In this document: in pieces, positions 220-29,982 of the stretch
How positions within the stretch are numbered: the first letter of the stretch is position 1
Layout: each line of letters starts with the position of its first letter
DNA from: a virus
IMG/VR virus record: IMGVR_UViG_3300006147_000378
Coordinates: 1-64,000 of that record
DNA length: 64,000 nucleotides
Reading direction: 5' to 3' (one strand)
The notes under the pieces: model-generated
What the model saw: only the letters and a program-made list of their open reading frames with translations
What the model was told of the DNA's origin: nothing
Databases searched by the model: none
Made by a program: the position numbers and the translations under genes

Positions 220-1803
220 ATGTTCAAGAACAGTATCGCATCGACACCATTAACTACGGATGCTGCGAATGCCTACTTCTCCAACGTCACCGGCCAGAGG
301 TACGGCAATGATAACTCGTTCCTTGCAACGCTTCGTGCGTTGGTTGCACCTCGTATGAAAGAGGACGAGTTTATCACACTCAAGTTCGGTCGTTCGGACT
401 ATGACGCATCCACCATCAAAAGCGTACCAGGCGACCGGGCGGTTGACGCCATTTGCAGCAGCTATCGCCTGAACGATTCGGATGGCAACATCATCATCCA
501 TAACCTGGGGTGTGACGCTGAGAGCAACAAGGTGAACCTCCAAATTCTTGGCTCGTACTTTACGGGCCACTATACGGGGTATCACCGGCTCGAAAAGGTG
601 AAGGAGTTCTACCGCAAGGCCATCAACGTGGACTGCTACATCAATCCCGAGCGCAAGAATGTCATCCTGTTTGTTGACAAGCTCGACAATAAAAAGCTGC
701 ACTATTTGCAGCAGTCCGTCCTGGCTATCCTGCCGTGGTACTTCGACCCGGAAAGCGGCGTTTCTGAGCTGGAGATGGAGCTGATTCATTCCCTGCGGGA
801 AACCACGTCCGAAAAGTATGAGGCGTGTCTGGTTCGTGTGGCTGAGCAGTACGACTTCAAATCGGCGAGGATTCGCCAGTTGCTTGGCGGGTTTGAGACC
901 CGCTTTGAGCAGATGGAGTGCGACCGTGTCCGCAGGGAAATCGACGATTACGACCGGCGTATCAGGAGCTTGAATGATGACATCGGCTGTATGCTCAGGG
1001 AGAGGAACGAAAGTTGCATCCGGCTTCTGGGCCTTGAGACGAAGATTGCCAACAGTGGCGAGGACTCCGAGATTATGGAATACTTCCTCTGTAACAACAA
1101 GCTGTACCTGGAGGAAGTGACCGACACAGATATGTACTTCTGTGTGAAGGACTACCTCGTCTACTTCGACAAGGAAATGGCTGAGGCTGCTATCAACAAC
1201 CCGAACAGCTTCGTGTACCAAAATGGCCGCAACGGTGAGTATCGTGGTACATCGGCTGAGAAAATGAAGCGGCTGATGCGGGAAATCTTCATCGAGGAGA
1301 TGCCGCGCTTGCGTATTAAGTTCTGTGCGGCCTACCGATTCAATCTGAATGGCAGTGTGGGTACGCAAAGCAGCCACTCCTTTGGCTATGAGTTTGCCGA
1401 TGCCATGCCGAACACCCACATCGACCGGTTTGGGTGCCTGGGCGGCTATCAAAAAACCATCAACCAGTTGCTCCAAAAGCGGGATTATATCAGTGCGATT
1501 GAGCAGTGCATCGCTTCCTGTAAGAGCCTCAACTGGGGCGACAGTCCGGTCATGGGCGAGTTCATGAGAACTATGTGGGGCAGCAGCGAGTACCACTACA
1601 ACAATCGCTGCATCGAGCTTCCTGATGGCCGTGTGGTAAAGCCTGCGGAGGCCATCAAGTGGCTGGAGGAACAGGATGGCGGTGAGGAAGATGGGCAGGA
1701 GCCGACACCGGTGCCGAGGGAGCAAGTGGCAGAACCCGCAGTCGAGGCAGCACAACCCGCACAGCAGACAAACGAAAACGAAGTCGAAGACTGGGCGTTC
1801 TAA
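220..1803 (+). CDS. large hypothetical protein, first gene of JAB/E1 operon (track ORF from 109; RBS GAGAGGTG favours ATG 220)
   Basis: long ORF, good RBS, acidic C-terminus; no recognisable domain; tightly linked to JAB and E1 genes. Confidence 0.6.
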   Translation: MFKNSIASTPLTTDAANAYFSNVTGQRYGNDNSFLATLRALVAPRMKEDEFITLKFGRSDYDASTIKSVPGDRAVDAICSSYRLNDSDGNIIIHNLGCDAESNKVNLQILGSYFTGHYTGYHRLEKVKEFYRKAINVDCYINPERKNVILFVDKLDNKKLHYLQQSVLAILPWYFDPESGVSELEMELIHSLRETTSEKYEACLVRVAEQYDFKSARIRQLLGGFETRFEQMECDRVRREIDDYDRRIRSLNDDIGCMLRERNESCIRLLGLETKIANSGEDSEIMEYFLCNNKLYLEEVTDTDMYFCVKDYLVYFDKEMAEAAINNPNSFVYQNGRNGEYRGTSAEKMKRLMREIFIEEMPRLRIKFCAAYRFNLNGSVGTQSSHSFGYEFADAMPNTHIDRFGCLGGYQKTINQLLQKRDYISAIEQCIASCKSLNWGDSPVMGEFMRTMWGSSEYHYNNRCIELPDGRVVKPAEAIKWLEEQDGGEEDGQEPTPVPREQVAEPAVEAAQPAQQTNENEVEDWAF

Positions 1804-1816
1804 GGGGAGATACGAT

Positions 1817-2752
1817 ATGAGTAAACCGATTAAAATGACACCCGAGTATCTGGAACAGTGCCGCTTGGAATTTGAAAAGGCGCTGTCTACCAGCAAGATG
1901 GCCGACGGCAAGATTACTTTCACGAAGGTGTTTACCACGGACGCCCGTAAGGCCACGGTTCACCTTTCGGCGTTGGCGTGGAATAAGATGACCGCCTTGC
2001 TTAGCGGGTTCGACAAGGAGGTCGCATGGCACGGCGTCGCTTTTCGTGGTGATGACGAGAGCAAGGACGAGTACATCATTGAGGATATCGTGGTGTACCC
2101 GCAGGAGGTTACCGGTGCCACCGTCGAGATGGACACAGAGAAGTACGCTCTGTGGTTAATGGAGAACGATGAGGACGAGCGGTTCCAAAACCTCAATATG
2201 CAGGGCCACTCTCATGTGAACATGGGGGTTACGCCATCCAGCGTTGACCTCACCCATCAGGAGGAAATCCTCAATATGTTGGGCGACGATGACTTCTACA
2301 TTTTTATGATTTGGAACAAGTCGCTCACCAGCAACACTAAAATCTACGACATGAAAAAGAATATCCTGTTTGAGAACGCCGATGTGTCTGTAACCTACGA
2401 ACCCGATGACATCGATGATTTCGTCGATGCGGCCAAGAAGATGGTTACGACCAAGGTAGCTACATACGGCTCTTACAACAAAACGGGCAGCACCGCATAC
2501 AACCCACTGGCGGGTCAGAACACCACGTCCATCACGCCTCCGAAGGATAAGGATAAGGGCAAGAAGGATGGTAAGGGCGGCAAGGATGGGGAGAAACCCC
2601 GAACTAAGATTGGCGCTGGTTGGCAGGGCGTGAGCGGAACCCAAACTTCGCTGTACGATGGTGCCAAGCAGGAGCAGGATAACGAAGACGAAGAGTGGGA
2701 GCGGCTGTACGGCGGCTTCGGCTACGGTTCGAGTGGAGCATGGAGGGGATAA
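1817..2752 (+). CDS. JAB/MPN (JAMM) metalloprotease-domain protein with Lys/Gly-rich C-terminal tail
   Basis: JAMM motif E...HSHVNMGVTPSSVD (HxHx7SxxD) seen in translation; RBS AGGGGAGA. Confidence 0.8.
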   Translation: MSKPIKMTPEYLEQCRLEFEKALSTSKMADGKITFTKVFTTDARKATVHLSALAWNKMTALLSGFDKEVAWHGVAFRGDDESKDEYIIEDIVVYPQEVTGATVEMDTEKYALWLMENDEDERFQNLNMQGHSHVNMGVTPSSVDLTHQEEILNMLGDDDFYIFMIWNKSLTSNTKIYDMKKNILFENADVSVTYEPDDIDDFVDAAKKMVTTKVATYGSYNKTGSTAYNPLAGQNTTSITPPKDKDKGKKDGKGGKDGEKPRTKIGAGWQGVSGTQTSLYDGAKQEQDNEDEEWERLYGGFGYGSSGAWRG

Positions 2753-2753
2753 T

Positions 2754-3425
2754 ATGGATTTGTCAAAAAGCTACGAATACTTCCAGCCTGAGAAGCTGAC
2801 CGACCGAGTTCACATCATTGGGTGTGGTTCGGTCGGCTCAACTGTGGCTGAGAACCTCGCCCGCAGCGGCGTGACCAAGTTCGCACTGTGGGACTTCGAT
2901 ACGGTTGAGCCCCACAATCTGGCCAATCAGATGTTCCGCCAGAAGGACATCGGCAAGCCGAAGGTCGATGCGCTCCTGGATATCCTCTGTGATATCAACG
3001 AGGAGGTCAAGGACGACACCAAGCTCCAGCCGGAAGGCTGGAAGGGTCAGCAGCTCTCCGGCTTTGTGTTCCTGTGTGTGGACAACATTGACCTGCGCCG
3101 GGAGATTGTGACACAGCACATGGACAGCCCTTACATCAAGGCCATGTTCGACTTCCGTACCCGGCTGGAGGACGCCCAGCACTACGCCGCCGATTGGTCT
3201 GACTTCAAGATGAAGAAGGACTTCCTGGCGTCTATGAACTTCTCCCATGACGAGGCCAAGGAGGAGACGCCGGTGTCGGCCTGTAATGTCACCCTGTCCG
3301 TTTGCCCCACCGTCCGCATCGTTTGTGCGTATGGTGTGGCCAACTTCATGAACTTCTGGAATGGCAAACCGCTGAAGAAACTCATCCTGGCTGATGCGTT
3401 CAACTTCATGCTGGACGCCTTCTGA
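2754..3425 (+). CDS. E1-like (ThiF/MoeB/UBA family) adenylyltransferase
   Basis: Rossmann motif IIGCGSVGS, ThiF-like fold signature, start overlaps JAB stop (coupled). Confidence 0.75.
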   Translation: MDLSKSYEYFQPEKLTDRVHIIGCGSVGSTVAENLARSGVTKFALWDFDTVEPHNLANQMFRQKDIGKPKVDALLDILCDINEEVKDDTKLQPEGWKGQQLSGFVFLCVDNIDLRREIVTQHMDSPYIKAMFDFRTRLEDAQHYAADWSDFKMKKDFLASMNFSHDEAKEETPVSACNVTLSVCPTVRIVCAYGVANFMNFWNGKPLKKLILADAFNFMLDAF

Positions 3426-3440
3426 TTGCTGACCTGATAT

Positions 3441-3472
3441 GAGCCCCGGCCACTGTCGCCGGGGCTCTTTTG
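3441..3472 (+). terminator. Rho-independent terminator (GAGCCCCGGC/GCCGGGGCTC + TTTT)
   Basis: 10-bp stem, 7-nt loop, T tract. Confidence 0.7.
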
Positions 3473-3479
3473 CAAAAAG

Positions 3480-4310
3480 ATGTACCGAAGGGAGGTGCGT
3501 GTTACGGACACAACGATTGGCAAGCTGAAAATTGGTACGCCCTTGATTATGGGAAAGTATGGCGTGAATAGAGACAGACCTAAGCCAATTATTTGGTTGA
3601 AGGGTACTCCAAACGGTGATTTTATCACAAAAGATGCCATTGATTACCTGCCGTTCGATGCTAAGGAGCGTGAGAACACAGAGAACAATAACGCTCGAAT
3701 AATGGGGAACAGTAGATACAGCGTCTCCAATCTTCTCCAGTTTCTCAACTGCGCTGAGGAATCGTGGTTCGCGCCCATGCACCAATTCGATGCCCCGCCC
3801 ACCGTTATGAATGTCGATTGGAACCGAGGTCAGTACGACCAGCACTATGGATTCCTCTATTTCTTTGAAGAGTATGAGATTGCCGCATTAGAGCAGGACA
3901 CACGGGTAGTTGATACTGATAATGTGGCGACTTTGGTGCGGCTCCCGTCGATTGCCGACATCCTTAGCCCCGACAGGTTCAAACTCTTTACCAAGAAGGG
4001 CGTTCGCCCGAAGGCGACCGAAGAATTGATTGGGAAACCGGGCGCTGAGTTTTACCTTGGTTCCTATGTTCCATTTTGGGTATCAGATTGGGGCCGTAAC
4101 GGACACGCCGCATTCATCGACAGAGATGGCTCCGTAAAAGTCCAGTGGCCAACGGGAAATTGCGGAGTTCGCCCAGTCTGTACTATCAGCCCTGCTACCG
4201 CCGTAGTTCTTGGCGATGACGGGTTCCACTACATAAAGCCACAAGAAATCAAGCAGAACGTTTGTACTGACGAAGAGCTATACGCTTTCTTAGGTCTGGC
4301 ACAGCCTTAA
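3480..4310 (+). CDS. hypothetical protein (candidate partner/effector of downstream RT)
   Basis: 276-aa ORF, no recognisable domain. Confidence 0.5.
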   Translation: MYRREVRVTDTTIGKLKIGTPLIMGKYGVNRDRPKPIIWLKGTPNGDFITKDAIDYLPFDAKERENTENNNARIMGNSRYSVSNLLQFLNCAEESWFAPMHQFDAPPTVMNVDWNRGQYDQHYGFLYFFEEYEIAALEQDTRVVDTDNVATLVRLPSIADILSPDRFKLFTKKGVRPKATEELIGKPGAEFYLGSYVPFWVSDWGRNGHAAFIDRDGSVKVQWPTGNCGVRPVCTISPATAVVLGDDGFHYIKPQEIKQNVCTDEELYAFLGLAQP

Positions 4311-4348
4311 ATGCGCCAATGAACTGTAACGAATATCCTTTCGGGGAG

Positions 4349-4368
4349 CTTCACGCCAAAGGCTGAAG
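4349..4368 (+). repeat. recurrent stem-loop motif copy 1 (CTTCAcGCC-AAA-GGCTGAAG)
   Basis: one of five covarying copies. Confidence 0.5.
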
Positions 4369-4447
4369 TAACGAATTGTCAGAAAAGTGAGATACCCAGA
4401 GGCGAACGGGCCTGGCGCCCGCAGCAGGCCACCGCACCAGTGGAACT

Positions 4448-4590
4448 GGTCGATGAGCTCGCACTACCATCGGCAACCCGAACAAATGCAATTTCGCCAC
4501 AGAAAATGACACCTTTCAGTGTCATTTTCCACCTGGATTTTCACACTTTTACCGACCTATTCAGACTTGGTCTCATCCGAGAGCTCATCA
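4448..4590 (+). ncRNA. candidate retron-like structured RNA upstream of RT (flanking inverted repeats GATGAGCTC / GAGCTCATC enclosing an 11-bp perfect hairpin at 4502..4529)
   Basis: inverted repeats at 4453-4461 and 4581-4589; hairpin GAAAATGACAC-CTTTCA-GTGTCATTTTC; no credible ORF in 4311-4704. Confidence 0.3.
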
Positions 4591-4704
4591 CATCCCTGAG
4601 CCCAGTCGTCTGTTTCTGTGTAGGTTACAGCTCACACTCTTTTGCAAAGGGGGGTAATCAGGTTGGTATATATCACAGTCAGGCAATCACCCATCTATCA
4701 TCAG

Positions 4705-5799
4705 ATGACACTGGAGGAGTTCCTGTTTCAGAACTTCCAGGCACCTGCGGTTGTGAACGCAAACATGGCGAACACAAAGACATACGAATACGAATATGCA
4801 AGCGAACACTTTACAAGCAGTCTGGACGTTGACAGCCTCATCTACAAGTTGGAGCGGTACAACCAGTCGGTGGCCGCACTGCGGGAGAAAGACCGGCACT
4901 CTCTGTACGACAGCTTCCACATTCCCAAGAAGTCTGGTGGCTTGCGAAAGATTGACGCCCCACGCCCCGAACTGATGGATGCGCTCCGGCGGCTCAAGAC
5001 AATCTTTGAGGAGGACTTTCACGCTCTGTACCATACTGCGGCCTTCGCATATGTGAAAAAGCGCTGCACGGTAGACGCGGTCAAGCGCCATCAGAAGAAC
5101 AACAGTAAGTGGTTCGCCAAGCTCGACCTCCATAACTTCTTCGGCAGCACCACGCTGGACTTTGTGATGACAATGTTTTCCATGGTCTATCCATTCAGCG
5201 AGGTGGTTAAGGTTCCACACGGTCGGCAGGAGTTGAGGAATGCTCTTGAACTTGCCTTTTTGGACGGTGGACTCCCGCAGGGGACACCAATCTCTCCGCT
5301 CATCACAAATGTGATGATGATTCCTGTGGACTTCAAACTCTCCAAGGCGTTCCGAGAGTTCAATAAGCAACGGTACATCTACACTCGGTATGCGGATGAT
5401 TTTATCATCTCGTCCAAGTATGACTTCGATGTCCATACCGTTGAGGATTTGGTTGTCCAAACGCTGAAGGATTTTGGTGCTCCGTTCTCAATCAATAACG
5501 CTAAGACTCGCTACGGCTCATCTGCTGGCCGGAACTGGAATCTTGGTGTTATGTTGAACAAAGACAACGAAATCACGATTGGCAACAAGAAAAAACGGCA
5601 GTTCCAGTCCATGCTGTACAACTACATAACGGATAAAAAGAATGGCGTCGAATGGAGCCGTGAAGACATACAAACTGTGCAGGGGCTCCATAGCTACTAT
5701 CGCATGGTCGAGGAAAAGGCCATTGATGCAATCGTCAGCCATATCAACGACAAGATGAAGGTCGATGTGATGCGCCTCATCAAAGATGATTTAAGGTAA
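4705..5799 (+). CDS. reverse transcriptase, retron-like/defence-RT-like (motifs IPKKSGGLRKI, LDLHNFFGS, LPQGTPISP, YADD, INNAKT)
   Basis: RT motifs 1-7 in order in translation; QGxxxSP (not DGR-type); NAxxH-like AVKRH region. Confidence 0.85.
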   Translation: MTLEEFLFQNFQAPAVVNANMANTKTYEYEYASEHFTSSLDVDSLIYKLERYNQSVAALREKDRHSLYDSFHIPKKSGGLRKIDAPRPELMDALRRLKTIFEEDFHALYHTAAFAYVKKRCTVDAVKRHQKNNSKWFAKLDLHNFFGSTTLDFVMTMFSMVYPFSEVVKVPHGRQELRNALELAFLDGGLPQGTPISPLITNVMMIPVDFKLSKAFREFNKQRYIYTRYADDFIISSKYDFDVHTVEDLVVQTLKDFGAPFSINNAKTRYGSSAGRNWNLGVMLNKDNEITIGNKKKRQFQSMLYNYITDKKNGVEWSREDIQTVQGLHSYYRMVEEKAIDAIVSHINDKMKVDVMRLIKDDLR

Positions 5800-5863
5800 T
5801 AAACAATCCTTGGCAGTTGGAGGTTAAACTGCCATTCCTGTAATGTATAGTCGTTCAACGACG

Positions 5864-5883
5864 CTCTACGCCAAAGGCTGGAG
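5864..5883 (+). repeat. recurrent stem-loop motif copy 2 (CTCTAcGCC-AAA-GGCTGGAG)
   Basis: identical to copy 3, 296 nt apart. Confidence 0.5.
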
Positions 5884-6159
5884 TATCACGAGGGTGGGAA
5901 CTGGAGACACCTGCCAGGCACGCAGCAGGCACTGCGATGCGCCTCCAGAATGAGCCCACCGGAAAGCTTCCGACTCACGAACCCCAGCGAGTCTCCCAAA
6001 CCCATTGTCCCACAATGCAGCAGAAAGTCCATTAGCCTCATACTTAACATTACTGGATGTCTCTTCGGCGACGACCGGTCTTCAGGATACAGGACTTTCC
6101 TATGTAGATTACAGGAAACAAACTTCATTTGCAATGTATAACATTCAGAAATGGATGTG

Positions 6160-6179
6160 CTCTACGCCAAAGGCTGGAG
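6160..6179 (+). repeat. recurrent stem-loop motif copy 3 (CTCTAcGCC-AAA-GGCTGGAG)
   Basis: identical 21-mer to copy 2. Confidence 0.5.
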
Positions 6180-6424
6180 TTTCAACTTGATGAGAAGCAC
6201 ACCCTCCCCCGGAGGAGAAGGCGCCCGAGCTGGCCACGACAGCTACGCAGGTCGGCAGCCGTCATCACCACACACGAGATGTCCACACCCATTGCGAGAC
6301 AATAGCACCCATGGAATTTCTTCCTTCTTCCGGACATCCGATTCATCTCAAGATTCGCATCTTGAGCTGCTTCCGCGCAGCAACCAGGGAGCTACTTCTA
6401 TGCAGATTGCAAATGACGAACTAA

Positions 6425-6513
6425 GGAGAGATACCCAAGCTGGTTAAGGGGCAAGTTTGCTAAACTTGTAGGCCGAAAACGGTGCGTGGGTTCGAGCCCC
6501 ACTCTCTCCGCCA
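6425..6513 (+). tRNA. tRNA-Ser (anticodon GCT), long variable arm, CCA encoded
   Basis: cloverleaf folded by hand: acceptor GGAGAGA/TCTCTCC, anticodon loop TTGCTAA, T-loop TTCGAGC. Confidence 0.8.
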
Positions 6514-6631
6514 GGTATGGAACCATTCAATCATGCGTCAAAGGGGAGCCTTTACAGTATGCTGGTGCCTGCACCGGAAACTGGTTATACGTTGGTTCGG
6601 CGGGACGCCGCTGCATGAGCGTACTTTATAT

Positions 6632-6707
6632 TGGGGTGTAGCCAAGTGGTTAAGGCACGGGACTTTGACTCCCGCATTCGCTGGTTCGAGTCCAGCCACC
6701 CCAGCCA
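6632..6707 (+). tRNA. tRNA-Gln (anticodon TTG), CCA encoded
   Basis: closely resembles E. coli tRNA-Gln incl. 5' U; anticodon loop CTTTGAC. Confidence 0.8.
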
Positions 6708-6818
6708 TGTGCCGTTTTAAGCAAATTGTGTTTGGGTCAGAGAGGGGCTTCGTGTGCGCACCTTGTGGGGCCCCTCGTAAACAAATGTGCGGTAGGGCTT
6801 ACCTCAAGCCCACAATAT

Positions 6819-6894
6819 GCTGACGTAGCTTAACTGGTAGAGCGGGGCTTTCGTAAAGCTCAGGTTCCCGGTTCAACTCCGGGCGTCAGCTCCA
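6819..6894 (+). tRNA. tRNA-Thr (anticodon CGT), CCA encoded
   Basis: acceptor GCTGACG/CGTCAGC, anticodon loop TTCGTAA, T-arm CCCGG/CCGGG. Confidence 0.75.
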
Positions 6895-7031
6895 GTAGGT
6901 TCTGTTGGTCATGCTCACGTTTGTGCGGTTAGCTCATCACTCAACTGCTATCTCTGTGAGAGACACAGCCGGGTGCACACGGAGTCTTACGGGCGCAGAA
7001 TCCGCCGCTACGATGCGTCGCAGCGGTGTAC

Positions 7032-7106
7032 GCTGGTGTAGCTCAATGGTAGAGCCACCCCTTTGTAAGGGGAGGGTTGCGGGTTCGAGCCCTGTCACCA
7101 GCTCCA
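7032..7106 (+). tRNA. tRNA-Thr (anticodon TGT), CCA encoded
   Basis: acceptor GCTGGTG/CACCAGC, anticodon loop TTTGTAA. Confidence 0.7.
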
Positions 7107-7126
7107 CCCTGTATTACAGGGTTTTT
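7107..7126 (+). terminator. small terminator hairpin after tRNA (CCCTGT-ATT-ACAGGG + TTTTT)
   Basis: 6-bp stem and T5. Confidence 0.5.
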
Positions 7127-7286
7127 ACCACGGTGTTGGACGTGTTGTCCAATTCATTTCCTTTCCTTTCTTTGCTCATGTTGTATGCGTGTGCCGCTAA
7201 GCATAATAGGTGATGCTTGCGGTGAAGGTGGTTCGATTCCGCCAGTGGTACACGTCGTAGCAACAAAGAACCGTACCTCCATATAT

Positions 7287-7362
7287 CTGGGTGTAGCTCA
7301 GTTGGCAGAGCGCCTGTTTTGGGAACAGGAGGCCGTGGGTTCGAGACCCGCCACTCAGACCA
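7287..7362 (+). tRNA. tRNA-Pro (anticodon TGG), CCA encoded
   Basis: acceptor CTGGGTG/CACTCAG, anticodon loop TTTGGGA (G37). Confidence 0.75.
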
Positions 7363-7385: not shown

Positions 7386-7874
7386 ATGCTGTTGTATCAT
7401 GGAACGTCCCAAACGTTCAACGAACCATGTTTGAGTAAGTGTAAGCCGCACCGAGATTTCGGTTGCGGCTTTTATCTTGCCCAAAACTACATAGACGCAC
7501 TAACAATGGCAATCAAGAACTCCCGCACAGGGTTCGTCCAATCATATTTTCTGGACGACACAAGCGAATTGAACGTGCTCGAACTCGATGGATATTCCGA
7601 GGAATGGTTACAATTCGTTGTGCAATCAAGGCTTGGGCAAAAATCAAACTTCGATTTGGTGATTGGGAACATGGCAGGCGGAGGCCGGAATCTGAAAAGC
7701 AAGTTCTCAAAGTACCGCAGTTCTGGCACATCGGTCGAAGAAGTGATGGCGGCTATGCGTAATGAGCTGACCAACACCACACTTGGCGTCCAGTATGCGT
7801 TTCTGACGCCGAAAGCAGTATCAAAACTAAAACTATTGGATGTCGAAACGATTGAAGAGGAGGAATTGGCATGA
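7386..7874 (+). CDS. putative ADP-ribosyltransferase-like protein (PARP-like H-Y-E signature: LYHGTS ... GCGFYLAQNY; DUF3990-like)
   Basis: HGT...GFYLA motif in translation. Confidence 0.5.
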   Translation: MLLYHGTSQTFNEPCLSKCKPHRDFGCGFYLAQNYIDALTMAIKNSRTGFVQSYFLDDTSELNVLELDGYSEEWLQFVVQSRLGQKSNFDLVIGNMAGGGRNLKSKFSKYRSSGTSVEEVMAAMRNELTNTTLGVQYAFLTPKAVSKLKLLDVETIEEEELA

Positions 7875-8428: not shown

Positions 8429-8513
8429 GGTCACAACGCATTTGCGTTTTGATAAGCAGTACCCGTGTAGATTGACTGCACTTACATAGCAATAGCGGAA
8501 AATGGTGCAGTAT

Positions 8514-8533
8514 CTTCTCGCCAAAGGCAGAAG
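8514..8533 (+). repeat. recurrent stem-loop motif copy 4 (CTTCTcGCC-AAA-GGCAGAAG)
   Basis: covarying copy. Confidence 0.5.
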
Positions 8534-8576
8534 AATAAACTTGGGTTCTTCGCTTTTTGAGTTCGCAATCCGACCA

Positions 8577-8610
8577 AACTAAATCATTTTCGGCGAAAAT
8601 GATTTAGTTA
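8577..8610 (+). promoter_or_regulatory. perfect 15-bp stem hairpin (AACTAAATCATTTTC-GGCG-GAAAATGATTTAGTT) in leader of NAD operon; no U tract
   Basis: inverted repeat seen directly. Confidence 0.5.
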
Positions 8611-8720
8611 GGCGGATTACTTCACCAAAAAGCGTCGCTCAGTGCACACGCCTCGCTGTCCTGTTATAAGCTTCGGCGTGCAGACGGGTATTTACGATGA
8701 TTTGGGAACGGAGGTGGCAC

Positions 8721-8873
8721 ATGACTGAGAAGAATAAGAAAAAGCAAAATGCGAAAAAGATACACAATTTTTGGACGTGTGCCCGCCCCGTTACCCAGAT
8801 TGTCCCCAACAAAAAAGCATATAACCGTAAGCGAAACAAAGATAACATCAACAAAGGGAGAGACAGCTCATGA
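8721..8873 (+). CDS. small basic peptide (50 aa, K-rich), stop overlaps nicotinamidase start (ATGA)
   Basis: strong RBS GGAGGTG 6 nt upstream of ATG; translational coupling. Confidence 0.35.
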   Translation: MTEKNKKKQNAKKIHNFWTCARPVTQIVPNKKAYNRKRNKDNINKGRDSS

Positions 8874-9421
8874 AATGTCTGGTTGTAGTAGATATGCAGA
8901 ACGATTTCATTGACGGTTCGCTGGGAACGGCGGAAGCCAAGGCCATCGTTGAGAATGTTGTTCAGAAAATCAACGGCTTTGACGGTCTGATTGCGGTCAC
9001 GCAGGACACGCATCCGGCCAACTACCTTAAAACTCAGGAGGGGCACCTGCTTCCCGTCGAGCACTGCATCGAGGGAACTGATGGCTGGAAGCTGAACCCG
9101 GCGGTATATGATGCCATTGATAAGCGGCATGATTCCGGCACACCTGTCGAGTCGTTCTTCAAACCCACCTTCGGTTCTGTGCGGCTCAGTGAGTGGCTGG
9201 CAAACAAGGACTGCGGCGACCCCGTGGAGGAGGTTGTGCTGATTGGTCTCTGTACCGACATCTGTGTCGTTTCCAATGCCCTGCTGGTTAAGGCCGTTCT
9301 GCCGGAGGCCAAGGTTACGGTAGACGCCGCCTGTTGTGCTGGTGTAACGCCGGAGAGCCACGCTGCCGCACTCAAGACCATGCAGATGTGCCAGGTGAAC
9401 GTTGAGAACTGGGAGGGATAA
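8870..9421 (+). CDS. isochorismatase-family hydrolase, nicotinamidase (PncA)-like
   Basis: MKCLVVVDMQNDF... and catalytic Cys region LIGLCTDICV. Confidence 0.75.
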   Translation: MKCLVVVDMQNDFIDGSLGTAEAKAIVENVVQKINGFDGLIAVTQDTHPANYLKTQEGHLLPVEHCIEGTDGWKLNPAVYDAIDKRHDSGTPVESFFKPTFGSVRLSEWLANKDCGDPVEEVVLIGLCTDICVVSNALLVKAVLPEAKVTVDAACCAGVTPESHAAALKTMQMCQVNVENWEG

Positions 9422-9424: not shown

Positions 9425-10231
9425 ATGATTTTGGTAAACGGAAAGCCTTTGACACCCACCCAGTTTCCCGACAACACATCATCCTTCCGCTTCGATGTAA
9501 ACGAGAGTGTCAACAACCTGGAATGGGAGCGGTATGAAATTGAATGGCGCTATGACAGCGATACCGAGTGCATCCTGCTGTGGTATCTGGTGAATCATAT
9601 CCGCTCTGTTGCGGGCTGTGACGCCATCATTTACCTCTACCTGCCCTATATTCCCAACGCCAGAATGGACAGAGTGAAGAACGAGGATGAGGTGTTCACA
9701 CTGAAATGGTTTGCCAACTTCATCAACGAGCTTTGCTTCGAGCGGGTCGTTGTGCTTGACCCGCACTCCAACGTGGCGACGGCACTCATCAACAATGTGC
9801 TTGTCAATCAGCCGGATGGACTCATCCAAGAGGCAATCGACGCCATCGGCGCAGATGACCTCCTGCTTTGCTACCCGGACGAGGGTGCTGCCAAGCGATA
9901 TTCCGAGCTGATGAAGGCCGAGTATATCTTTGGCATCAAACACCGGGATTGGCGTTCTGGCAAGATTGAACGGTTGGAGTTGACCACACCTGAGAAGGTG
10001 GCGGGTCATACAGTCCTGATTGTGGATGATATCTGCTCCCGTGGCGGCACATTCACGCATACGGCCACCGCATTGAGGGAGGCCGGGGCCAAGGCGATTT
10101 ACCTGTATGTCACGCACTGTGAGAGCACCATCTTCAAGGGTTCTGTGTTGACGGATGGTATGATTCAGCACGTTTTTACAACCAACAGCATCTATCGTGG
10201 CGAGCACGAGATGGTGACTGTGTTAGAGTAA
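9425..10231 (+). CDS. ribose-phosphate pyrophosphokinase (Prs)-like PRTase-fold protein; possibly the ADPR-pyrophosphate synthetase of an NAD+ reconstitution pathway
   Basis: PRTase motif VLIVDDICSRGGT; Prs-like PYxxxARxDR and DLH blocks. Confidence 0.75.
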   Translation: MILVNGKPLTPTQFPDNTSSFRFDVNESVNNLEWERYEIEWRYDSDTECILLWYLVNHIRSVAGCDAIIYLYLPYIPNARMDRVKNEDEVFTLKWFANFINELCFERVVVLDPHSNVATALINNVLVNQPDGLIQEAIDAIGADDLLLCYPDEGAAKRYSELMKAEYIFGIKHRDWRSGKIERLELTTPEKVAGHTVLIVDDICSRGGTFTHTATALREAGAKAIYLYVTHCESTIFKGSVLTDGMIQHVFTTNSIYRGEHEMVTVLE

Positions 10232-10250: not shown

Positions 10251-10865
10251 ATGTCCGCAAATTTCGATGCAAGCAAAATGTATACATATCTCAAAGGGTA
10301 TGCAATGGGATTGGAGTGGCATGATACACTCGAAGCCCTTTCGTTTGCCAGGGTCGCACATAAAGACCAACGCCGCAAAAGCGGCGAACCGTATATTGTC
10401 CATCCTTTGACGGTTGCAAGCCATGCGGTGGCACTTGGAATTAAGGAGGATACAATCGTTGCGGCAGCAATTCTTCACGATGTTGTTGAGGATTGCGGTG
10501 TCAAAGCGGAGAATCTTCCTGTTTCTATGGACACGAGAGATGCGGTTCGCAGGCTCACGCATATCAAGGGCGAGCCTCTCGGCCCGTATTACCGTGAAAT
10601 TGGAGAGAACAGGGCCGCATCTATTGTAAAATTGTTGGATAGATGCGATAATGTATCTACCATGGCGGGCGTTTTTTCAGTAGAAAAGGTCGCACAGTAC
10701 ATCGGTGAAACGCGGCAGTTTGTTCTTCCGCTGTTGCGGGAGACAAAAGACAAGTGGCCAAATGACTCGAACGCACTCTTCGTGTTGAAATATCACATTA
10801 TGTCGGTTATTGATGGCCTTGAGGTCTGCCTGCAAGTAAAGAATGAGGTGGGTACAAATGCTTGA
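10251..10865 (+). CDS. HD-domain hydrolase of RelA/SpoT (p)ppGpp-hydrolase type (small alarmone hydrolase-like)
   Basis: HPLTVASHAVALG...AAILHDVVED HD motif. Confidence 0.7.
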   Translation: MSANFDASKMYTYLKGYAMGLEWHDTLEALSFARVAHKDQRRKSGEPYIVHPLTVASHAVALGIKEDTIVAAAILHDVVEDCGVKAENLPVSMDTRDAVRRLTHIKGEPLGPYYREIGENRAASIVKLLDRCDNVSTMAGVFSVEKVAQYIGETRQFVLPLLRETKDKWPNDSNALFVLKYHIMSVIDGLEVCLQVKNEVGTNA

Positions 10866-12063
10866 ACTCCAAGGAAAATTCGCAACCGCAAAAGTTTTCA
10901 CTGATGTGGTTGATAACGAATCCATTTCGCAGGTCATCAATCTCCTGAACCAGCCATATGCGGAAGGTGCCCATGTCCGCATGATGCCCGACATCCACGC
11001 TGGGGCAGGATGTACCATTGGCACTACCATGACTATTAAGGACAAGATTTGCCCGAACCTTGTGGGTGTGGACATCGGTTGTGGTATGGAGACAATCAAA
11101 ATCAAGGAAGACCACATCGAGCCGCAGAAACTGGATACCGTCATCCGTGATGGCATCCCTTCCGGGTTTTCTATCCGGGATAAGGCTCATCGGTTCTCCT
11201 CCGAGATTGACTTGGCCGAGCTGTATTGTGCCAAGCAGGTCAACATTGACCGTGCGCTGTGTAGCATTGGGACTTTGGGCGGCGGCAACCATTTCATCGA
11301 AGCGGACAAGGATGATGATGGTAACATCTATATCGTCGTCCACTCCGGCAGTCGGCATCTGGGGCTACAGATTGCCAACTACTATCAGGAGGCCGCATAC
11401 AAAGCACTCACCAGTTACAGCCAGGAGGAAATCGATGCTGTTATTACCCAACTCAAAGCAGAGGGGCGGCAAAAGGAAATCCAAAAGGCTTTGAAGCAGC
11501 TCAAGTCGAAGCATAGCCCGGTTCCGAAGCCGCTGGCCTATGTTGAGGGAGAGCTGTTTGACCAGTATATCCACGACATGAAGATTGCCCAGCAGTATGC
11601 TGAACTCAACCGCCGGGCAATGATGGATGTGATTGTGAAGGGCATGGGTTTCCATGTTGTCGAGCAGTTTACCACCATCCACAACTACATTGATGTGGAC
11701 AACATGATTCTTCGGAAGGGTGCTGTGTCCGCTCGGGCTGGGGAACGTCTGCTCATCCCCATCAACATGAGAGATGGTAGCCTGATTTGCACCGGCAAAG
11801 GGAACGAGGACTGGAACTGTTCTGCGCCCCATGGCGCTGGACGCCTGATGAGCCGGAGCGCTGCAAAGGAGACCTTCACAGTTTCCGAGTTTAAGAAGCA
11901 GATGGACGGTATCTATACCACATCTGTTGGCCGCAGCACTCTTGATGAGTGCCCGATGGCCTACAAGAACATGGCCGATATCGTGGACAACATCGACCCG
12001 ACGGCGGAGATTAACGCAATCATCAAGCCAATCTACAATTTCAAAGCAGGTGATGACGAATGA
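10858..12063 (+). CDS. rtcB: RNA 3'-phosphate/2',3'-cyclic phosphate ligase RtcB
   Basis: MPDIHAGAGCTIG and GGGNHFIE motifs. Confidence 0.85.
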   Translation: MLELQGKFATAKVFTDVVDNESISQVINLLNQPYAEGAHVRMMPDIHAGAGCTIGTTMTIKDKICPNLVGVDIGCGMETIKIKEDHIEPQKLDTVIRDGIPSGFSIRDKAHRFSSEIDLAELYCAKQVNIDRALCSIGTLGGGNHFIEADKDDDGNIYIVVHSGSRHLGLQIANYYQEAAYKALTSYSQEEIDAVITQLKAEGRQKEIQKALKQLKSKHSPVPKPLAYVEGELFDQYIHDMKIAQQYAELNRRAMMDVIVKGMGFHVVEQFTTIHNYIDVDNMILRKGAVSARAGERLLIPINMRDGSLICTGKGNEDWNCSAPHGAGRLMSRSAAKETFTVSEFKKQMDGIYTTSVGRSTLDECPMAYKNMADIVDNIDPTAEINAIIKPIYNFKAGDDE

Positions 12064-12168: not shown

Positions 12169-13656
12169 ATGATTCACTACAATCCTTTGCTCTGCCTGGA
12201 TTTCTACAAGACGGCCCACGCAGAGCAGTATCCGCAGACTTTGACCAAGATGGTCTCCTACTATACACCACGCATGACTCGGCTTGGCGATACCGACAAG
12301 GTGACGATGTTCGGTCTCCAGGCATTCATCAAGGAATATCTCAGAGACTCATTTGACATCTGTTTCTTCCAAGAGGACTGGGAGGATGTTTTGGATGACT
12401 ACAAGCGTGTTCTCAACGCTACCATCAACACCGATGGCGTCGGTGTCCAGCGGCTGAAAGCTCTGCACGACCTCGGCTATCTGCCTTTGGAGATTAGGGC
12501 TGTGCCGGAAGGTGTTCGCACTAATATCAAAGTACCGCAAATCGAAATCTCCAATACCCACCCGGATTTCGTGTGGCTGGTCAACTCCATCGAGACCATG
12601 CTTTCCTGCACTATGTGGCACACCCAGGTTTCCGCTGAGGTGGGTTATCGCTACCGTCAAATCGTCAATGAGTACGCCGAGCGCACCTGTGATGACAGTG
12701 TGGTTCGGGCACGGCTCCTTGGCGATTTTTCTATGCGCGGTCAGGAGAGTGTAGAGAGCGCCACCAAGAGCTCCGCCGCTTTCTGCCTCAGTTTCCTGAA
12801 CACGGCCACCGTACCCGCTATTCTTTGGCTGGAGGATAACTACGACTGCGACTGTGTGCATGAGCCAGTTGCATATGGTGCTCTGTCCACCGAACACAGC
12901 GTTATGTGCTCCAACTTTGCCATTGATGGCGATGAGATTACCCATATTCGCCGTCTGCTGACTGAAATCTATCCACACCAGAGCTTCTCTATGGTCAGCG
13001 ACAGTTATGACTACTGGAATCTGGTGGACAATATCCTGCCGCAACTCAAGGATGAGATTCTGGCGCATGACGGGTGCATCTCCATCCGTGGCGACAGCGG
13101 TGACCCGGTTCAGGTTGTGACCGAGACCGTGTTCCGCCTGTGGGATATCTTTGGCGGCACTGTGAACAGTAAGGGGTTCAAGGTTTTGGACTCTCATGTC
13201 AAGGCGCTGTATGGCGACAGCATCACGCCGCAGCGTTGCCAGCAGGTCTATCAGATTCTGGAGGACAATGGGTTTGCTATCAACAACGTGGCGCTGGGTG
13301 TCGGTTCCTTCTCTATGCAATGTCTTGAGACAATGGACGCTGAACAGAAGTCCTATGCTCCATATACCCGTGATACCTTCGGTATCGCCGTGAAGGCAAC
13401 CTATGCAGAGGACGCTGACGGCAAACCCATCATGATTTTCAAGAACCCCAAAACCGACACCGGCCATTTTAAGAAATCCCAGCGTGGCTGTTGCCGTGTG
13501 GTCAAGGACGGCGACAACTACACATATGAGGATGGCCTGACTTGGGCCGAGGCTCAGGAGAACAATGAGCTTCAGACCGTGTTCAAGAATGGTGATATCA
13601 TCAAGAGGTTTACGCTGGATGAAGTGCGTCAGAACCTCCATGGAGGCCAGTTCTGA
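12169..13656 (+). CDS. nicotinamide phosphoribosyltransferase (NAMPT/NadV)-family protein; possibly a nicotinamide ADPR-transferase
   Basis: N-terminal LCLDFYKTAHAEQYP typical of NAMPT family; ~495 aa. Confidence 0.8.
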   Translation: MIHYNPLLCLDFYKTAHAEQYPQTLTKMVSYYTPRMTRLGDTDKVTMFGLQAFIKEYLRDSFDICFFQEDWEDVLDDYKRVLNATINTDGVGVQRLKALHDLGYLPLEIRAVPEGVRTNIKVPQIEISNTHPDFVWLVNSIETMLSCTMWHTQVSAEVGYRYRQIVNEYAERTCDDSVVRARLLGDFSMRGQESVESATKSSAAFCLSFLNTATVPAILWLEDNYDCDCVHEPVAYGALSTEHSVMCSNFAIDGDEITHIRRLLTEIYPHQSFSMVSDSYDYWNLVDNILPQLKDEILAHDGCISIRGDSGDPVQVVTETVFRLWDIFGGTVNSKGFKVLDSHVKALYGDSITPQRCQQVYQILEDNGFAINNVALGVGSFSMQCLETMDAEQKSYAPYTRDTFGIAVKATYAEDADGKPIMIFKNPKTDTGHFKKSQRGCCRVVKDGDNYTYEDGLTWAEAQENNELQTVFKNGDIIKRFTLDEVRQNLHGGQF

Positions 13657-14140: not shown

Positions 14141-14881
14141 ATGCTGTATAACCCTGAGAAAATAAAAAACGACCTTGTCCAGTGGATTAGGGACTACTTC
14201 GCCGAGAACGGCCCAAGGTGCAGCGCTGTCGTGGGTATTTCTGGCGGCAAAGACAGCACCATCGTCGCCGCCTTGTGCGTCGAAGCGCTTGGCAAAGACC
14301 GGGTGGTCGGCGTCCTTATGCCGAACACAGAGCAAAATGACATCCTGGACAGCTACAAGCTGGTGGAACACCTTGGCATCGAGTACAAGTTTGTAAACAT
14401 CGGCGAGTCCGTCAATGCGCTGCTTCTTCGCCTGGAGGAGGTTGCGCAGGTAAGTGAGCAGACAAGGGTGAATCTCCCGGCCAGAATCCGCATGGCAACA
14501 CTGTATGCCATCGCCCAATCTCTGCCTAACGGCGGTCGTGTTGCCAATACCTGCAACAGGTCTGAGGATTTTGTAGGTTACTCCACCAAGTTTGGTGACA
14601 GTGCTGGCGACTTCAGCCCACTTGCCAATCTTATGGTAGATGAGGTAAAGCAGATTGGGCATGAGCTTTCACTGCCCGCCGACCTGGTTGATAAGATGCC
14701 GTCCGATGGCCTATGCGGTAAGACCGACGAGGACAATCTTGGTTTTACATACGCACAACTCGATACCTACATCAATTTTGGGTCATGCGGTGATGAGGAA
14801 ATTGACCGCAAAATTGCGGCCATGCACAAGTGCAACCTTCACAAGCTGGAGCCCATGCCCTCCTTCCGTGGTTGGAGATGA
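14141..14881 (+). CDS. nadE: NH3-dependent NAD+ synthetase NadE
   Basis: PP-loop SGGKDS plus NadE-specific blocks aligned by eye to B. subtilis NadE. Confidence 0.8.
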   Translation: MLYNPEKIKNDLVQWIRDYFAENGPRCSAVVGISGGKDSTIVAALCVEALGKDRVVGVLMPNTEQNDILDSYKLVEHLGIEYKFVNIGESVNALLLRLEEVAQVSEQTRVNLPARIRMATLYAIAQSLPNGGRVANTCNRSEDFVGYSTKFGDSAGDFSPLANLMVDEVKQIGHELSLPADLVDKMPSDGLCGKTDEDNLGFTYAQLDTYINFGSCGDEEIDRKIAAMHKCNLHKLEPMPSFRGWR

Positions 14882-14895
14882 CAAAGGAGGTGGCC

Positions 14896-16170
14896 ATGTT
14901 AAACGCTATCACAGCGATTACGGCCTTGCAAGGTGTATCCAGCACATTAAAAAAGCAAGAGGTTTTGCGGGAGTTCAGCGGTAACAAGGACTTCCGCAAA
15001 CTTTTGTATTACGCACTCAATCCCATGCTTACCTACAAGATTTCAGAGCAGACGCTGCGCCGTCCAGTGCGGTATGACCCAGCTATCACCTTGACTATGT
15101 GCGACATCTACGATATTTGCGAAACGCTGTCAAAGCGGAAGGCATTGGATGATGCAACAGTCTATCAGGTGTGTGCTTTTGTGCAGGCGTGCCCACCAGA
15201 GATTACGGAGTTTTACACGAAGCTGCTCAGCAAAACCCTGCGGCTGGGTGTTACTGCAAAGACGGTCAACAAAGTCATTCCGGGACTGATACCTGAATGG
15301 GAAGTCCAACAGGCGTATCCGATTGAAAAGCATCCGTTCCAGAATGGTACATGGTTTACCTTGACACAGAAGCTCAACGGTGTTCGGGCCACCTTCTACA
15401 AAGGAAAGCTAATTGCAAGAAGCGGCCTGCCCTATGAAGGTTTGGAACATATCACGAGCGTGCTTGAGCGAGCCGAGTTTGACGGTCTTGTTTTTGATGG
15501 TGAGCTCACACTTCTGGATAAGGGAGACCTGAGCGACAACGAGGCTTTCCGAAAGGCGACTGGCATCATCAACTCGGACGACGCCGATAAAACCGGCATT
15601 TGTTACACGATTTTTGATGTCATTCGTGAGGAGGACTTCAACAACGGAGAAGTAGGAATGACATATAGTGCACGCCGAACGGCAATGGAAACTATCACCG
15701 TTCTTCTCTCCGGCACCGAGTGTATCGACGTTCTTCCTGTTCTTTACATGGGTACTGACCAGTCCAAGATAGGTGAATTGCTGAAACGGATGGTCAGTGA
15801 GGACAAAGAGGGTCTGATTGTGAACCTGGATGTCCCGTATAAGCGTAAGCGGCACAGCGGCATCCTAAAGGTCAAGGAGTTCTACACAATGGACTTGCCC
15901 ATCATCGAGTGCGAGGAAGGCAGTGGCCGACTGGTTGGCACTCTTGGGGCCTTTGTTCTCAACTACAAGGGGAACGAGGTTCGTGTCGGCTCTGGATTCA
16001 CAGACAAGCAACGAGATGCGTATTGGCGGCGCAGAGAGGAACTTGCTGGGGTTCTCTGCGAGGTCAAGTATAAAGAAATCTCCAGCGACAAGAACACCGG
16101 GGCAGAAAGTCTGCAATTCCCGGTGTTTCTTTCATTACGCACAGATAAGGAAGATGTAAGCTATGGCTAA
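14896..16170 (+). CDS. ATP-dependent DNA ligase (T7-like), motif I variant KLNGVR
   Basis: motifs I KLNGVR, III FDGELT, IV EGLIVN, V ILKVKEF. Confidence 0.75.
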   Translation: MLNAITAITALQGVSSTLKKQEVLREFSGNKDFRKLLYYALNPMLTYKISEQTLRRPVRYDPAITLTMCDIYDICETLSKRKALDDATVYQVCAFVQACPPEITEFYTKLLSKTLRLGVTAKTVNKVIPGLIPEWEVQQAYPIEKHPFQNGTWFTLTQKLNGVRATFYKGKLIARSGLPYEGLEHITSVLERAEFDGLVFDGELTLLDKGDLSDNEAFRKATGIINSDDADKTGICYTIFDVIREEDFNNGEVGMTYSARRTAMETITVLLSGTECIDVLPVLYMGTDQSKIGELLKRMVSEDKEGLIVNLDVPYKRKRHSGILKVKEFYTMDLPIIECEEGSGRLVGTLGAFVLNYKGNEVRVGSGFTDKQRDAYWRRREELAGVLCEVKYKEISSDKNTGAESLQFPVFLSLRTDKEDVSYG

Positions 16171-18104: not shown

Positions 18105-19187
18105 ATGCGCCAGTTAGCAAGTATCAGGAAGATTTCTGATATCCGCCCCATCCCCGGCGCCGACCGCATTGTGGTTGCGCAGGTTGATGGATGGGAGTGT
18201 GTTGTTCAAAAGGACGAGTTCCATGTGGGCGACACCATCGTCTATGTCGAGGTGGACTCTATTGTCCCAGAGCGCCCAGAGTTCGAGTTCCTGCGTGACC
18301 GTAAGTTCCGTGTGCGCACCATCAAGCTGCGTGGGCAGGTCAGTCAGGGCCTGGTTTTGCCGATGTCTATCCTGCCGGATGGCATCTATCCGCTTGGCAG
18401 CGATGTGACGAAGGTTCTCGGAATTGAGAAGTATGACCCCGAAGCACAGCAGGAGGCCATGCTTACCCAGAAGCAGCCGAACAAGCCCAAGAGCAAGTTT
18501 GCCCAGTTCATGATGCGGTTCAAGTGGTATCGCAAGCTGTTCATGAAGTCGAAGCGCAAGGGCGGGTTCCCAGAGTGGATTGTCAAGACGGACGAGACCC
18601 GTATCCAGAACCTGACCACCCTCTTTGATATTGAGCGGAGGAACGGCACCAAGTTCTCCGTCACTGAGAAGGTGGACGGTCAGTCTGCGACCTACTATCT
18701 CAGAAAGGTCTCCCGGCGCAAGTATGAGTTCGGGGTTTGCAGTCGAAACATTCACCTGGGTACTCCTGACAACAGCTCCTATTGGACTGTGGCAAAGAAG
18801 TACGACATCGAGAACGTGCTGAAGAAGCTCATCGGTGATTATGAAACTATCGTTTTACAAGGTGAAATCTGTGGTAACCAGATTCAGGGGAACAAGTATC
18901 ACATCAGTGGTTATGAGCTTTTCGCCTTCAACCTGATTTACCCAGGGCACAAGTGCGGCACTGCCGAAATCAAAGACCTGCTCTCCCCGTTTGGAATCAA
19001 AACGGTTCCAATCCTTGAGGAAGGCAAGGTTTTACCGGACACTATCGCAGATTTGGTAGAGTATTCCAAAGGTAAATCGATAGTTCGGAAAGAACAGAAG
19101 CGGGAGGGTGTTGTGATGCGCAACGTTCAGAAGAACATCAGCTTCAAGGTCATCAACCCAGACTTCCTGCTCGCAGAAAAGGACTGA
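18105..19187 (+). CDS. ATP-dependent RNA ligase-family nucleotidyltransferase (motif I KVDGQS) with N-terminal OB-like domain
   Basis: KVDG motif I; family assignment RNA vs DNA ligase is inference from context. Confidence 0.6.
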   Translation: MRQLASIRKISDIRPIPGADRIVVAQVDGWECVVQKDEFHVGDTIVYVEVDSIVPERPEFEFLRDRKFRVRTIKLRGQVSQGLVLPMSILPDGIYPLGSDVTKVLGIEKYDPEAQQEAMLTQKQPNKPKSKFAQFMMRFKWYRKLFMKSKRKGGFPEWIVKTDETRIQNLTTLFDIERRNGTKFSVTEKVDGQSATYYLRKVSRRKYEFGVCSRNIHLGTPDNSSYWTVAKKYDIENVLKKLIGDYETIVLQGEICGNQIQGNKYHISGYELFAFNLIYPGHKCGTAEIKDLLSPFGIKTVPILEEGKVLPDTIADLVEYSKGKSIVRKEQKREGVVMRNVQKNISFKVINPDFLLAEKD

Positions 19188-21688: not shown

Positions 21689-21698
21689 GGAGGGCGTT

Positions 21699-29928: not shown

Positions 29929-29948
29929 CTTTTCGCCAAAGGCAGAAG
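29929..29948 (+). repeat. recurrent stem-loop motif copy 5 (CTTTTcGCC-AAA-GGCAGAAG)
   Basis: covarying copy. Confidence 0.5.
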
Positions 29949-29982
29949 TAAAAATTCGGAACTACGCTCTCCGAGTCCAGCA

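Follow-up and report, generated by a model that had tools for sequence, protein, structure and literature searches.

A phage-borne retron-clade reverse transcriptase with five structured RNA units and no linked effector: a candidate multi-template retron

Retrons are understood as tripartite bacterial defense systems made up of one reverse transcriptase (RT), one noncoding RNA (ncRNA), and one effector. In a 64,000-nt stretch of gut phage DNA (IMG/VR record IMGVR_UViG_3300006147_000378, positions 1 to 64,000; the whole stretch is referred to below as the window), we found a retron-clade RT gene that has no linked effector and is accompanied by five copies of a structured RNA unit, three of them beside the RT gene and two dispersed, and this association of units with the RT recurs across a broad clade of phages. 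We found neither a phage retron with multiple ncRNAs nor this ncRNA family described in the searchable literature, and we regard the element as a real, well-supported, and apparently undescribed phage-borne, effector-less, multi-template retron variant. In what we consider the probable reading, a phage-encoded retron without an effector began with a single template RNA and now has a whole family of templates, with the RT binding a conserved hairpin (hairpin 2), priming at a G, and copying the payloads of the units into DNA resembling multicopy single-stranded DNA (msDNA).

The reverse transcriptase and its family

The open reading frame (ORF) at 4705-5799 matches Pfam RVT_1 (4.5e-20) and carries the motifs LPQGTPISP, YADD, and AVKRH, in agreement with a preliminary description of this DNA that had recognized an RT from its QGxxxSP, YADD, and AVKRH boxes. 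The majority of its database homologues are called at 378 amino acids (aa), which matches a start at TTG 4663, downstream of a Shine-Dalgarno-like GGGGGG run.

4663/4705-5799, + strand: retron-clade reverse transcriptase, 378 aa from TTG 4663 or 364 aa from ATG 4705

Profile searches consistently returned retron RTs. The best PADLOC model was retron RT_II-A (1.3e-45, full-length coverage), and all 25 of the matches listed were retron RTs. Among NCBIfam models, retron_St85_RT scored 2.7e-51 (174.5 bits, which is below the equivalog cutoff of 235), the group II maturase model scored 1.8e-24 (86.5 bits against a cutoff of 300), and the Drt2 model scored 3e-11 (43 bits), spanning 80 residues only. 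The eight best matches in a PDB sequence search were likewise retron RTs, led by the Ec83 RT (6.5e-22). On these sequence comparisons, the enzyme is a member of the retron clade and not a group II intron, diversity-generating retroelement (DGR), or UG/Abi-type RT.

The active-site motif YADD is invariant throughout the phage RT family, and all catalytic motifs are retained across the clade. The motifs NAXXH and VTG have been defined for retron RTs, with H and G as their most conserved residues, and region Y is said to steer the retron RT to its msr (PMC7736814). In the phage RT, the NAXXH of region X (between RT2 and RT3) aligns to AVKRH, in which N and A are replaced and H is invariant in the phage family, and the VTG of region Y (RT7) aligns to NWNLG, in which G is invariant and there is no V or T. 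The nearest bacterial relatives (27 to 32% identity) retain YTRYADD and RQxVTG, and an identity gap separates the two groups (at least 37% inside the phage clade versus at most 32% to bacterial retron RTs). The altered region Y fits the unusual hairpin-2 handle of the RNA units described below. No further domain is fused to the 378-aa RT.

Five structured RNA units in the window

The sequence GCTCTACGCCAAAGGCTGGAGT was found by a repeat search once upstream of the RT gene and twice downstream of it, where no such match is expected by chance, and the RT flanks align as three homologous units of ~280 to 310 nt, termed u1, u2, and u3. Each unit starts with CTGTAAT-G-NAT, continues with a short variable hairpin (hairpin 1) and a conserved hairpin, CTYNN-CGCCAAAGGC-NNRAG (hairpin 2), and finishes with the reverse complement of its own opening 7 nt, preceded by YATGTAG. 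The closing 7-mers of the three units differ compensatorily (CTGTAAC/GTTACAG, CTGTAAT/ATTACAG, and TTGCAAT/ATTGCAA). Unit u1 occupies the canonical msr-msd position, upstream of the RT gene and on the same strand, and ends 33 nt before the TTG start.

A covariance model of the 5' module of the unit (R1; 54 positions), searched against the window with filters off, gave exactly five matches, all on the + strand, and the next best candidate reached only 11 bits. Two of these matches (8490-8540 and 29903-29955) lie beyond the RT flanks and belong to the dispersed units u5 and u4. We distinguish the RT-flanking units as class A and the dispersed units as class B. The units, together with a hairpin that lies between the RT gene and u2, are as follows.

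4324-4630, + strand: ncRNA unit u1 (class A); R1 65.5 bits, E = 1.8e-11, fold z-score -4.09; a1 4324-4330, G 4331, hairpin 1 4336-4347, hairpin 2 4349-4368, payload 4369-4617, GTGTAG 4618-4623, a2 4624-4630
5811-5834, + strand: conserved hairpin TGGCAGT..ACTGCCA between the RT stop codon and u2, identical in the related locus L259
5835-6117, + strand: ncRNA unit u2 (class A); R1 65.3 bits; a1 core 5838-5844, G 5845, hairpin 1 5850-5862, hairpin 2 5864-5883, internal hairpin CATTGTCCCACAATG 6003-6017, G 6107, a2 6108-6114
6125-6416, + strand: ncRNA unit u3 (class A), ending 8 nt before tRNA-Ser; R1 59.4 bits; a1 core 6129-6135, G 6136, hairpin 1 6141-6158, hairpin 2 6160-6179, internal hairpin 6290-6304, G 6405, a2 6406-6412
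8458-8692, + strand: ncRNA unit u5 (class B); R1 39.3 bits, E = 5.6e-06, fold z-score -7.90; a1 8460-8466, G 8467, hairpin 2 8514-8533, long payload hairpin, G 8683, a2 8684-8690
29881-30122, + strand: ncRNA unit u4 (class B); R1 48.9 bits, E = 5.4e-08, fold z-score -7.74; a1 29881-29893, G 29894, hairpin 2 29929-29948, branched long payload hairpin, G 30109, a2 30110-30122

The closing helix of u5 is TACCCGT/ACGGGTA, and its payload stems contain a single G-U pair in 51. Unit u4 is closed by a perfect 13-bp a1/a2 helix, GGCCAGTCGCCTT/AAGGCGACTGGCC, and in an alignment of its orthologues (A5), 15 of 66 consensus pairs are maintained through two-sided changes, with none broken in the long stem. 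Rfam searches of the window (gathering threshold) and of all unit regions (E ≤ 10) returned only tRNAs or noise and no family for the units.

These boundaries replace an earlier proposal for the RNA. The preliminary description had rightly noted that no credible ORF lies upstream of the RT gene, and had suggested there an msr-msd flanked by a1/a2 repeats, built from a 9-bp inverted repeat that encloses an 11-bp perfect hairpin (4502-4529), along with nested GGTGGG/CTGGAG pairing at ~5888-5960 downstream of the RT gene. All three features exist, the first arm of the repeat at 4452-4460 (one base from the position first given) and the second at 4581-4589, but all are lost in a relative with 90% RT identity, and we therefore do not regard them as a functional a1/a2 or msd. 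By our estimate, ~0.3 inverted repeats of 9 bp are expected by chance in 390 nt, and this one, like the 11-bp hairpin, is a nonconserved chance feature; all three features lie in unconstrained payload, and the true a1/a2 of u1 is CTGTAAC at 4324-4330 and GTTACAG at 4624-4630. Structured RNA does flank the RT gene, as had been supposed, but it takes the form of a repeated unit with other boundaries and five copies in the window. The hairpin directly downstream of the RT stop codon (5811-5834), also noted earlier, is kept in the same relative and is possibly a processing site or a 3' structure of the RT mRNA.

Conservation of the units across related phages

Homologues of the RT were found at 72 IMG/VR loci (41 to 79% identity), on contigs of up to 148 kb, and also on contigs of metagenome-assembled genomes (MAGs), which were mostly binned to Clostridia (such as Oscillospiraceae, Acutalibacteraceae, and Lachnospiraceae). 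The arrangement of RT plus units was seen in more than 100 gut phage contigs and is abundant in human and animal gut viromes. In both IMG/VR and MAG loci, units lie directly upstream and downstream of the RT gene, on the RT strand, down to ~44% RT identity; each RT is accompanied by two to four nearby units, of which one to three lie downstream. An exact-pattern scan of IMG/VR for the hairpin found 106 stretches, including sites distant from the RT on the same contigs. The relatives in IMG/VR viral contigs, together with retron models that far outscore the group II and DRT models, bear out the earlier view of a retron-like RT with a structured ncRNA carried by a phage.

The secondary structure of the unit is maintained by covariation. 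Across 81 hits, hairpins 1 and 2 are 96.4% paired, and in 224 cells both partners have changed; 0 of 500 shuffles came up to this, and slid controls paired at 40 to 46%. A perfect 7-bp a1/a2 helix starting from model position 1 is present in ~70 of 77 hits, and at least 15 different complementary pairs represent it. Each of the five window units, and nearly every related unit, has a G directly after a1 and a G before a2; in the Ec86 ncRNA, the branching G faces a G likewise. The apex of hairpin 2 differs among RT lineages (CGCCAAAGGC, CGCCGAAGGC, CGCTGTCAGCG, TACTGTTAGTG, GTATTGTAAATC, and GCGTTTCGC) with its internal pairing preserved, and it is mostly common to all units of one phage, CGCCAAAGGC being the version in the window phage. 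Such lineage specificity would be expected of an element by which the RT recognizes its RNAs.

Payloads of the two unit classes

Class A payloads are 200 to 290 nt long and A/C rich (A 0.31, C 0.28, G 0.22, and T 0.19) in a genome of near-even composition. In the relative with 90% RT identity, they are 45 to 55% identical to those of the window (~50% for u1), compared with 54% for 4-fold degenerate RT sites and 90 to 97% for the scaffold. The payload sequence thus drifts at about the neutral rate, and because its divergence equals that of the 4-fold degenerate sites, positive selection need not be invoked. Hypermutation of the units was considered and ruled out, as u1 is almost without differences among four near-identical contigs. 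A small internal hairpin, CATTG..CAAT, located ~160 nt from the 5' end, is retained in many u2- and u3-type units.

Class B payloads, ~150 nt in length, fold into long hairpins (z-scores, -5 to -10). Only 3.6% of their predicted pairs are G-U, and the folding energy computed for the complementary DNA (cDNA) with DNA parameters is -34 to -45 kcal/mol. Since the payload hairpin is almost purely Watson-Crick, a cDNA copy would fold as its mirror image, and the scarcity of G-U pairs is as expected if the structure must also exist in the cDNA.

Two short sequences recur in the class A payloads. The palindrome (A)AGGCGCC(T) is present in 9 to 12 of 54 payloads from diverse phages (fewer than 1 expected), for example at 6236-6245 and 4405-4412, and GCAGCAGG recurs as well; both sit 40 to 70 nt past hairpin 2. 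The palindrome is a possible protein-binding or restriction-type site.

The properties of the payloads bear on whether the units are templates at all. They might instead act as RNAs that are never reverse transcribed, either coprocessed with the tRNA array into which they run with 8-nt spacers or binding the RT or proteins of the host in the manner of sponges or regulators.

6425-7362, + strand: tRNA array Ser-GCT, Gln-TTG, Thr-CGT, Thr-TGT, and Pro-TGG, which continues the row of units directly (ARAGORN and Rfam)

Class A payloads that are unconstrained in sequence and weakly structured would suit such a role, as would the location of u4 and u5 near tRNA- and NAD-related genes. We nevertheless judge it quite improbable, given that no catalytic motif of the RT has been lost anywhere in the clade, the closing helix of the units is still retron-like and has the G-G juxtaposition, the hairpin-2 apex differs among RT lineages, and the class B stems avoid G-U, as would be expected if the complementary DNA must fold.

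Payload sequence also speaks to the idea that the element is a DGR or the remnant of a group II intron, to which the group-II-like QGxxxSP of the RT and the variable surface-type protein that adjoins u1 could be taken to point. No payload resembles any coding region in the 64-kb window, and there is therefore no pair of template and variable repeats; nor is there microdiversity in the units among near-identical contigs. With regard to group II introns, which the preliminary description had named as the finding that would overturn a retron assignment, Rfam returned no intron RNA domain flanking the RT even at E ≤ 10, and the maturase model scored far below its cutoff, as given above. Within the limits of the window, we reject both readings and assign them only a negligible likelihood.

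Effector search and the neighboring 276-aa gene

No retron effector model was matched by proteins near the RT, u4, or u5, and no strong PADLOC defense model was found near any unit, in keeping with the preliminary description, which had seen no typical effector beside the RT. That description had raised the protein encoded immediately upstream of u1 as an uncharacterized partner.

3480-4310, + strand: 276-aa neighbor, a variable accessory gene with a weak Hoc-like match (phrog_10993, 3.1e-15)

This protein had no match in Pfam, PADLOC, NCBIfam, or the PDB. Its gene is present in 37 of the 72 related loci (30 to 51% identity) and absent from the other 35, and it evolves much faster than the RT, which is 76 to 79% identical in the closer loci. 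The 276-aa protein is no part of the system and no obligate partner of the RT. An exact 12-mer, CTCTTTTGCAAA, occurs at 3465-3476 and 4637-4648, just upstream of the starts of the 276-aa gene and the RT gene; it may be a shared expression signal or an insertion scar of the variable 276-aa gene.

The same data bear on the alternative that the element is a defense or superinfection-exclusion retron of a temperate phage, in which RT-msDNA restrains a toxin that is released upon infection by a competitor, the effector being encoded elsewhere or being the 276-aa protein. As far as is known, all characterized retrons act in defense, and some retrons reside in prophages; the phage encodes a large serine recombinase, and the 276-aa gene abuts u1 and evolves fast, like arms-race genes. 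We consider this alternative unlikely, however, because neither a retron effector nor a strong defense model lies near any unit, 35 of the 72 loci with the RT and its units lack the 276-aa gene, and the neighboring genes have counter-defense-type functions. We also know of no precedent for five templates that serve one toxin.

Proposed mechanism and comparison with known systems

The anatomy of the units matches that of retron ncRNA, from which we infer reverse transcription itself, priming at the G, and the start and end of the cDNA. A single retron-clade RT would recognize the shared msr-like handle, hairpin 2 (apex CGCCAAAGGC), on every unit, use as its priming site the invariant G at the a1 end of the closing helix, and copy the adjoining payload into msDNA-like single-stranded DNA, yielding several products per infected cell. 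The templates would be of two kinds, the RT-flanking class A units (u1 to u3) and the dispersed class B units (u4 and u5).

Bacterial retrons, which Mestre et al. reportedly sorted into types I to XIII in 2020, share many of these features. They have a retron-clade RT with a YTRYADD box (the nearest RT models being type II-A/St85 and type I-A, i.e., Ec83 and Ec78), an ncRNA directly upstream on the RT strand, a1/a2 closing repeats with an invariant G at the a1 end, and msr-like hairpins followed by a templatable region, and the long msd-like hairpins of u4 and u5 are of a kind also found in them. In contrast, the phage element has at least five ncRNAs per RT instead of one, with two of them 3 to 25 kb away; it has no effector and resides in a large phage among counter-defense-type genes; its NAXXH and VTG motifs are cut to the final H and G; and its class A payloads of 200 to 290 nt are A/C rich and weakly structured. 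The element falls outside a definition of retrons as tripartite systems with one ncRNA, but it shares with them the RT clade, the a1/a2 repeats, and, by presence and position, the G. What distinguishes it is a retron-clade RT on the virus side, effector-less and with cognate templates spread over the genome.

The closest precedent is UG27, an RT system of human gut phages and prophages. In 2022, Mestre et al. described UG27 RTs from gut viruses, accompanied by a putative ncRNA (PMC9226505). Their loci hold variable arrays of ~150-nt ncRNAs that are copied into 50- to 100-nt cDNA hairpins, and this synthesis needs the RT (YSDD) and two accessory proteins, sORF and bORF, without known domains; the units are ~135 to 167 nt long and have AUCN7UANAG and UUYA motifs that bracket a central hairpin, a pseudoknot, and a basal hairpin (Minerva preprint, bioRxiv 10.64898/2026.09.22.753630, September 2026). 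Both systems thus combine a phage-borne RT that has no association with defense islands with ncRNA arrays that vary in copy number and are diverse in sequence and conserved in structure, both have extra units in neighboring intergenic regions, and both count gut Bacillota phages among their hosts. An anti-defense role has been suggested for UG27. The two are set apart here indirectly, by description and motif: UG27 belongs to UG/Abi class 2 and has YSDD, whereas the phage element has YADD and higher scores with retron than with Drt hidden Markov models, and the phage units are 230 to 370 nt long with a1/a2, the G, and a different conserved hairpin. One phage hit from GenBank that might have been a UG27 system turned out to be an ordinary retron RT carrying a fused C-terminal domain.

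This resemblance raises the question of whether the phage RT works as UG27 does, copying only the central hairpin into short, unbranched cDNA, perhaps with the help of accessory proteins, with a1/a2 merely forming a basal stem. The variable, structure-conserved arrays of UG27, with their basal hairpin and occasional extra intergenic units, the variation of two to four units near the RT, the degenerate retron motifs of the RT, and the poor annotation of two conserved upstream proteins all lend themselves to such a scheme. We think it improbable nonetheless, since the active site is an invariant YADD and not YSDD, retron models far outscore Drt models, the units are longer than the ~150 nt of UG27, and the conserved upstream genes resemble a separate E1 (ThiF) and JAB-like module. 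The UG27 motif, searched as ATCN7TANAG, had two matches in the window against a chance expectation of 5.7, and neither match lies in any of the five units.

The DRT2 and DRT9 systems (UG2 and UG28) also consist of a single RT gene and an adjacent structured template RNA without a separate effector gene. They differ from the phage element in belonging to another RT clade, in having one ncRNA, in making concatemeric or homopolymeric products, and in acting in bacterial defense.

If the phage RNAs are copied as proposed, the biological role of retrons extends to phages, and the element is a natural case of one RT using many templates via a short, swappable recognition hairpin, which is relevant to multiplexed retron editing. 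Taken together with UG27, this would suggest that phage RTs of two clades converged on an RT plus a library of template RNAs.

Possible role in counter-defense

The absence of a toxin partner, the location in a phage among counter-defense-type genes, and the freedom of class A payloads to drift lead us to propose, tentatively and at less than even odds, that the products serve the phage as counter-defense, for instance as decoys or sponges that engage host immunity of the DNA-sensing or retron type. We further speculate, with considerable doubt, that this widespread clade of gut Clostridia phages turned the retron into a phage weapon in which one RT and dispersed, fast-turnover templates produce an msDNA repertoire of decoys or surrogate antitoxins against DNA-sensing or retron-based immunity. 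If true, it would be the first counter-defense retron and the first natural multi-template retron.

Several observations weigh against the proposed mechanism and role. For an msd, the class A payloads are long, and they lack significant structure (median z-score of -0.9 over all 59 units analyzed), and their drift at a neutral rate offers no hint of a sequence-specific role. No target of the payloads was found, with nothing above chance in a blastn-short search of the whole window or, with the payloads concatenated, in a blastn search of 50,697 phage records. Both retron signature motifs of the RT are degenerate (AVKRH for NAXXH and NLG for VTG), with only the H and the G left. The case for counter-defense is drawn from genomic context, and because a large serine recombinase is encoded, the phage could be temperate and use the element for host defense.

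Other features of the window

The first 34 kb of the window are rich in genes for RNA repair and NAD salvage, which look like a counter-defense island against tRNA-cleaving and NAD-depleting immunity. These genes encode a PncA-like isochorismatase (8870-9421), Prs (9425-10231), RtcB (10843-12063), NAMPT (12169-13656), an ATP-dependent DNA ligase (14830-16170), an RNA ligase (18105-19187), a Thg1-like tRNA-His guanylyltransferase (21612-22445), and two CCA-adding nucleotidyltransferases (within 30783-33159). Replication genes and the large serine recombinase come after this island. The recombinase (56387-57901; phrog_95, 3.8e-96) and a second, weaker integrase-like protein (37648-38598) suggest that this large phage may be temperate; among the relatives, L182 is located close to one end of a MAG contig of 359 kb.

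Upstream of the RT gene, a three-gene module (229-3425) is conserved in ~65 of the 72 related loci. It encodes a 525-aa protein without an assigned function, a 303- to 358-aa protein that weakly matches JAB (1.9e-4), and a ThiF/E1-like adenylyltransferase for which Cap2-type E1 models from CBASS-like systems gave matches. PDB sequence searches with the three proteins gave no match. The module may be a phage ubiquitin-like conjugation or deconjugation system that is separate from the RT.

Two further genes adjoin the dispersed units or the tRNA array. A DUF3990 protein (7386-7874), encoded downstream of the tRNA array and upstream of u5, matches the PADLOC candidate defense families PDC-M13B and PDC-M10A (2.6e-26) and shows conservation in 25 related loci. 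Immediately upstream of u4 lies the gene for a YspA/SLOG-family protein (29254-29616; PF10686, 2.6e-19), and SLOG domains have been tied to nucleotide-signal conflict systems. Among the tRNAs of the window, tRNA-Lys(TTT) at 103-195 is unusually long (93 nt), and a 139-nt Rfam tRNA match at 26560-26698 (43.8 bits over the whole model), which was not called by ARAGORN, suggests an insertion or intron.

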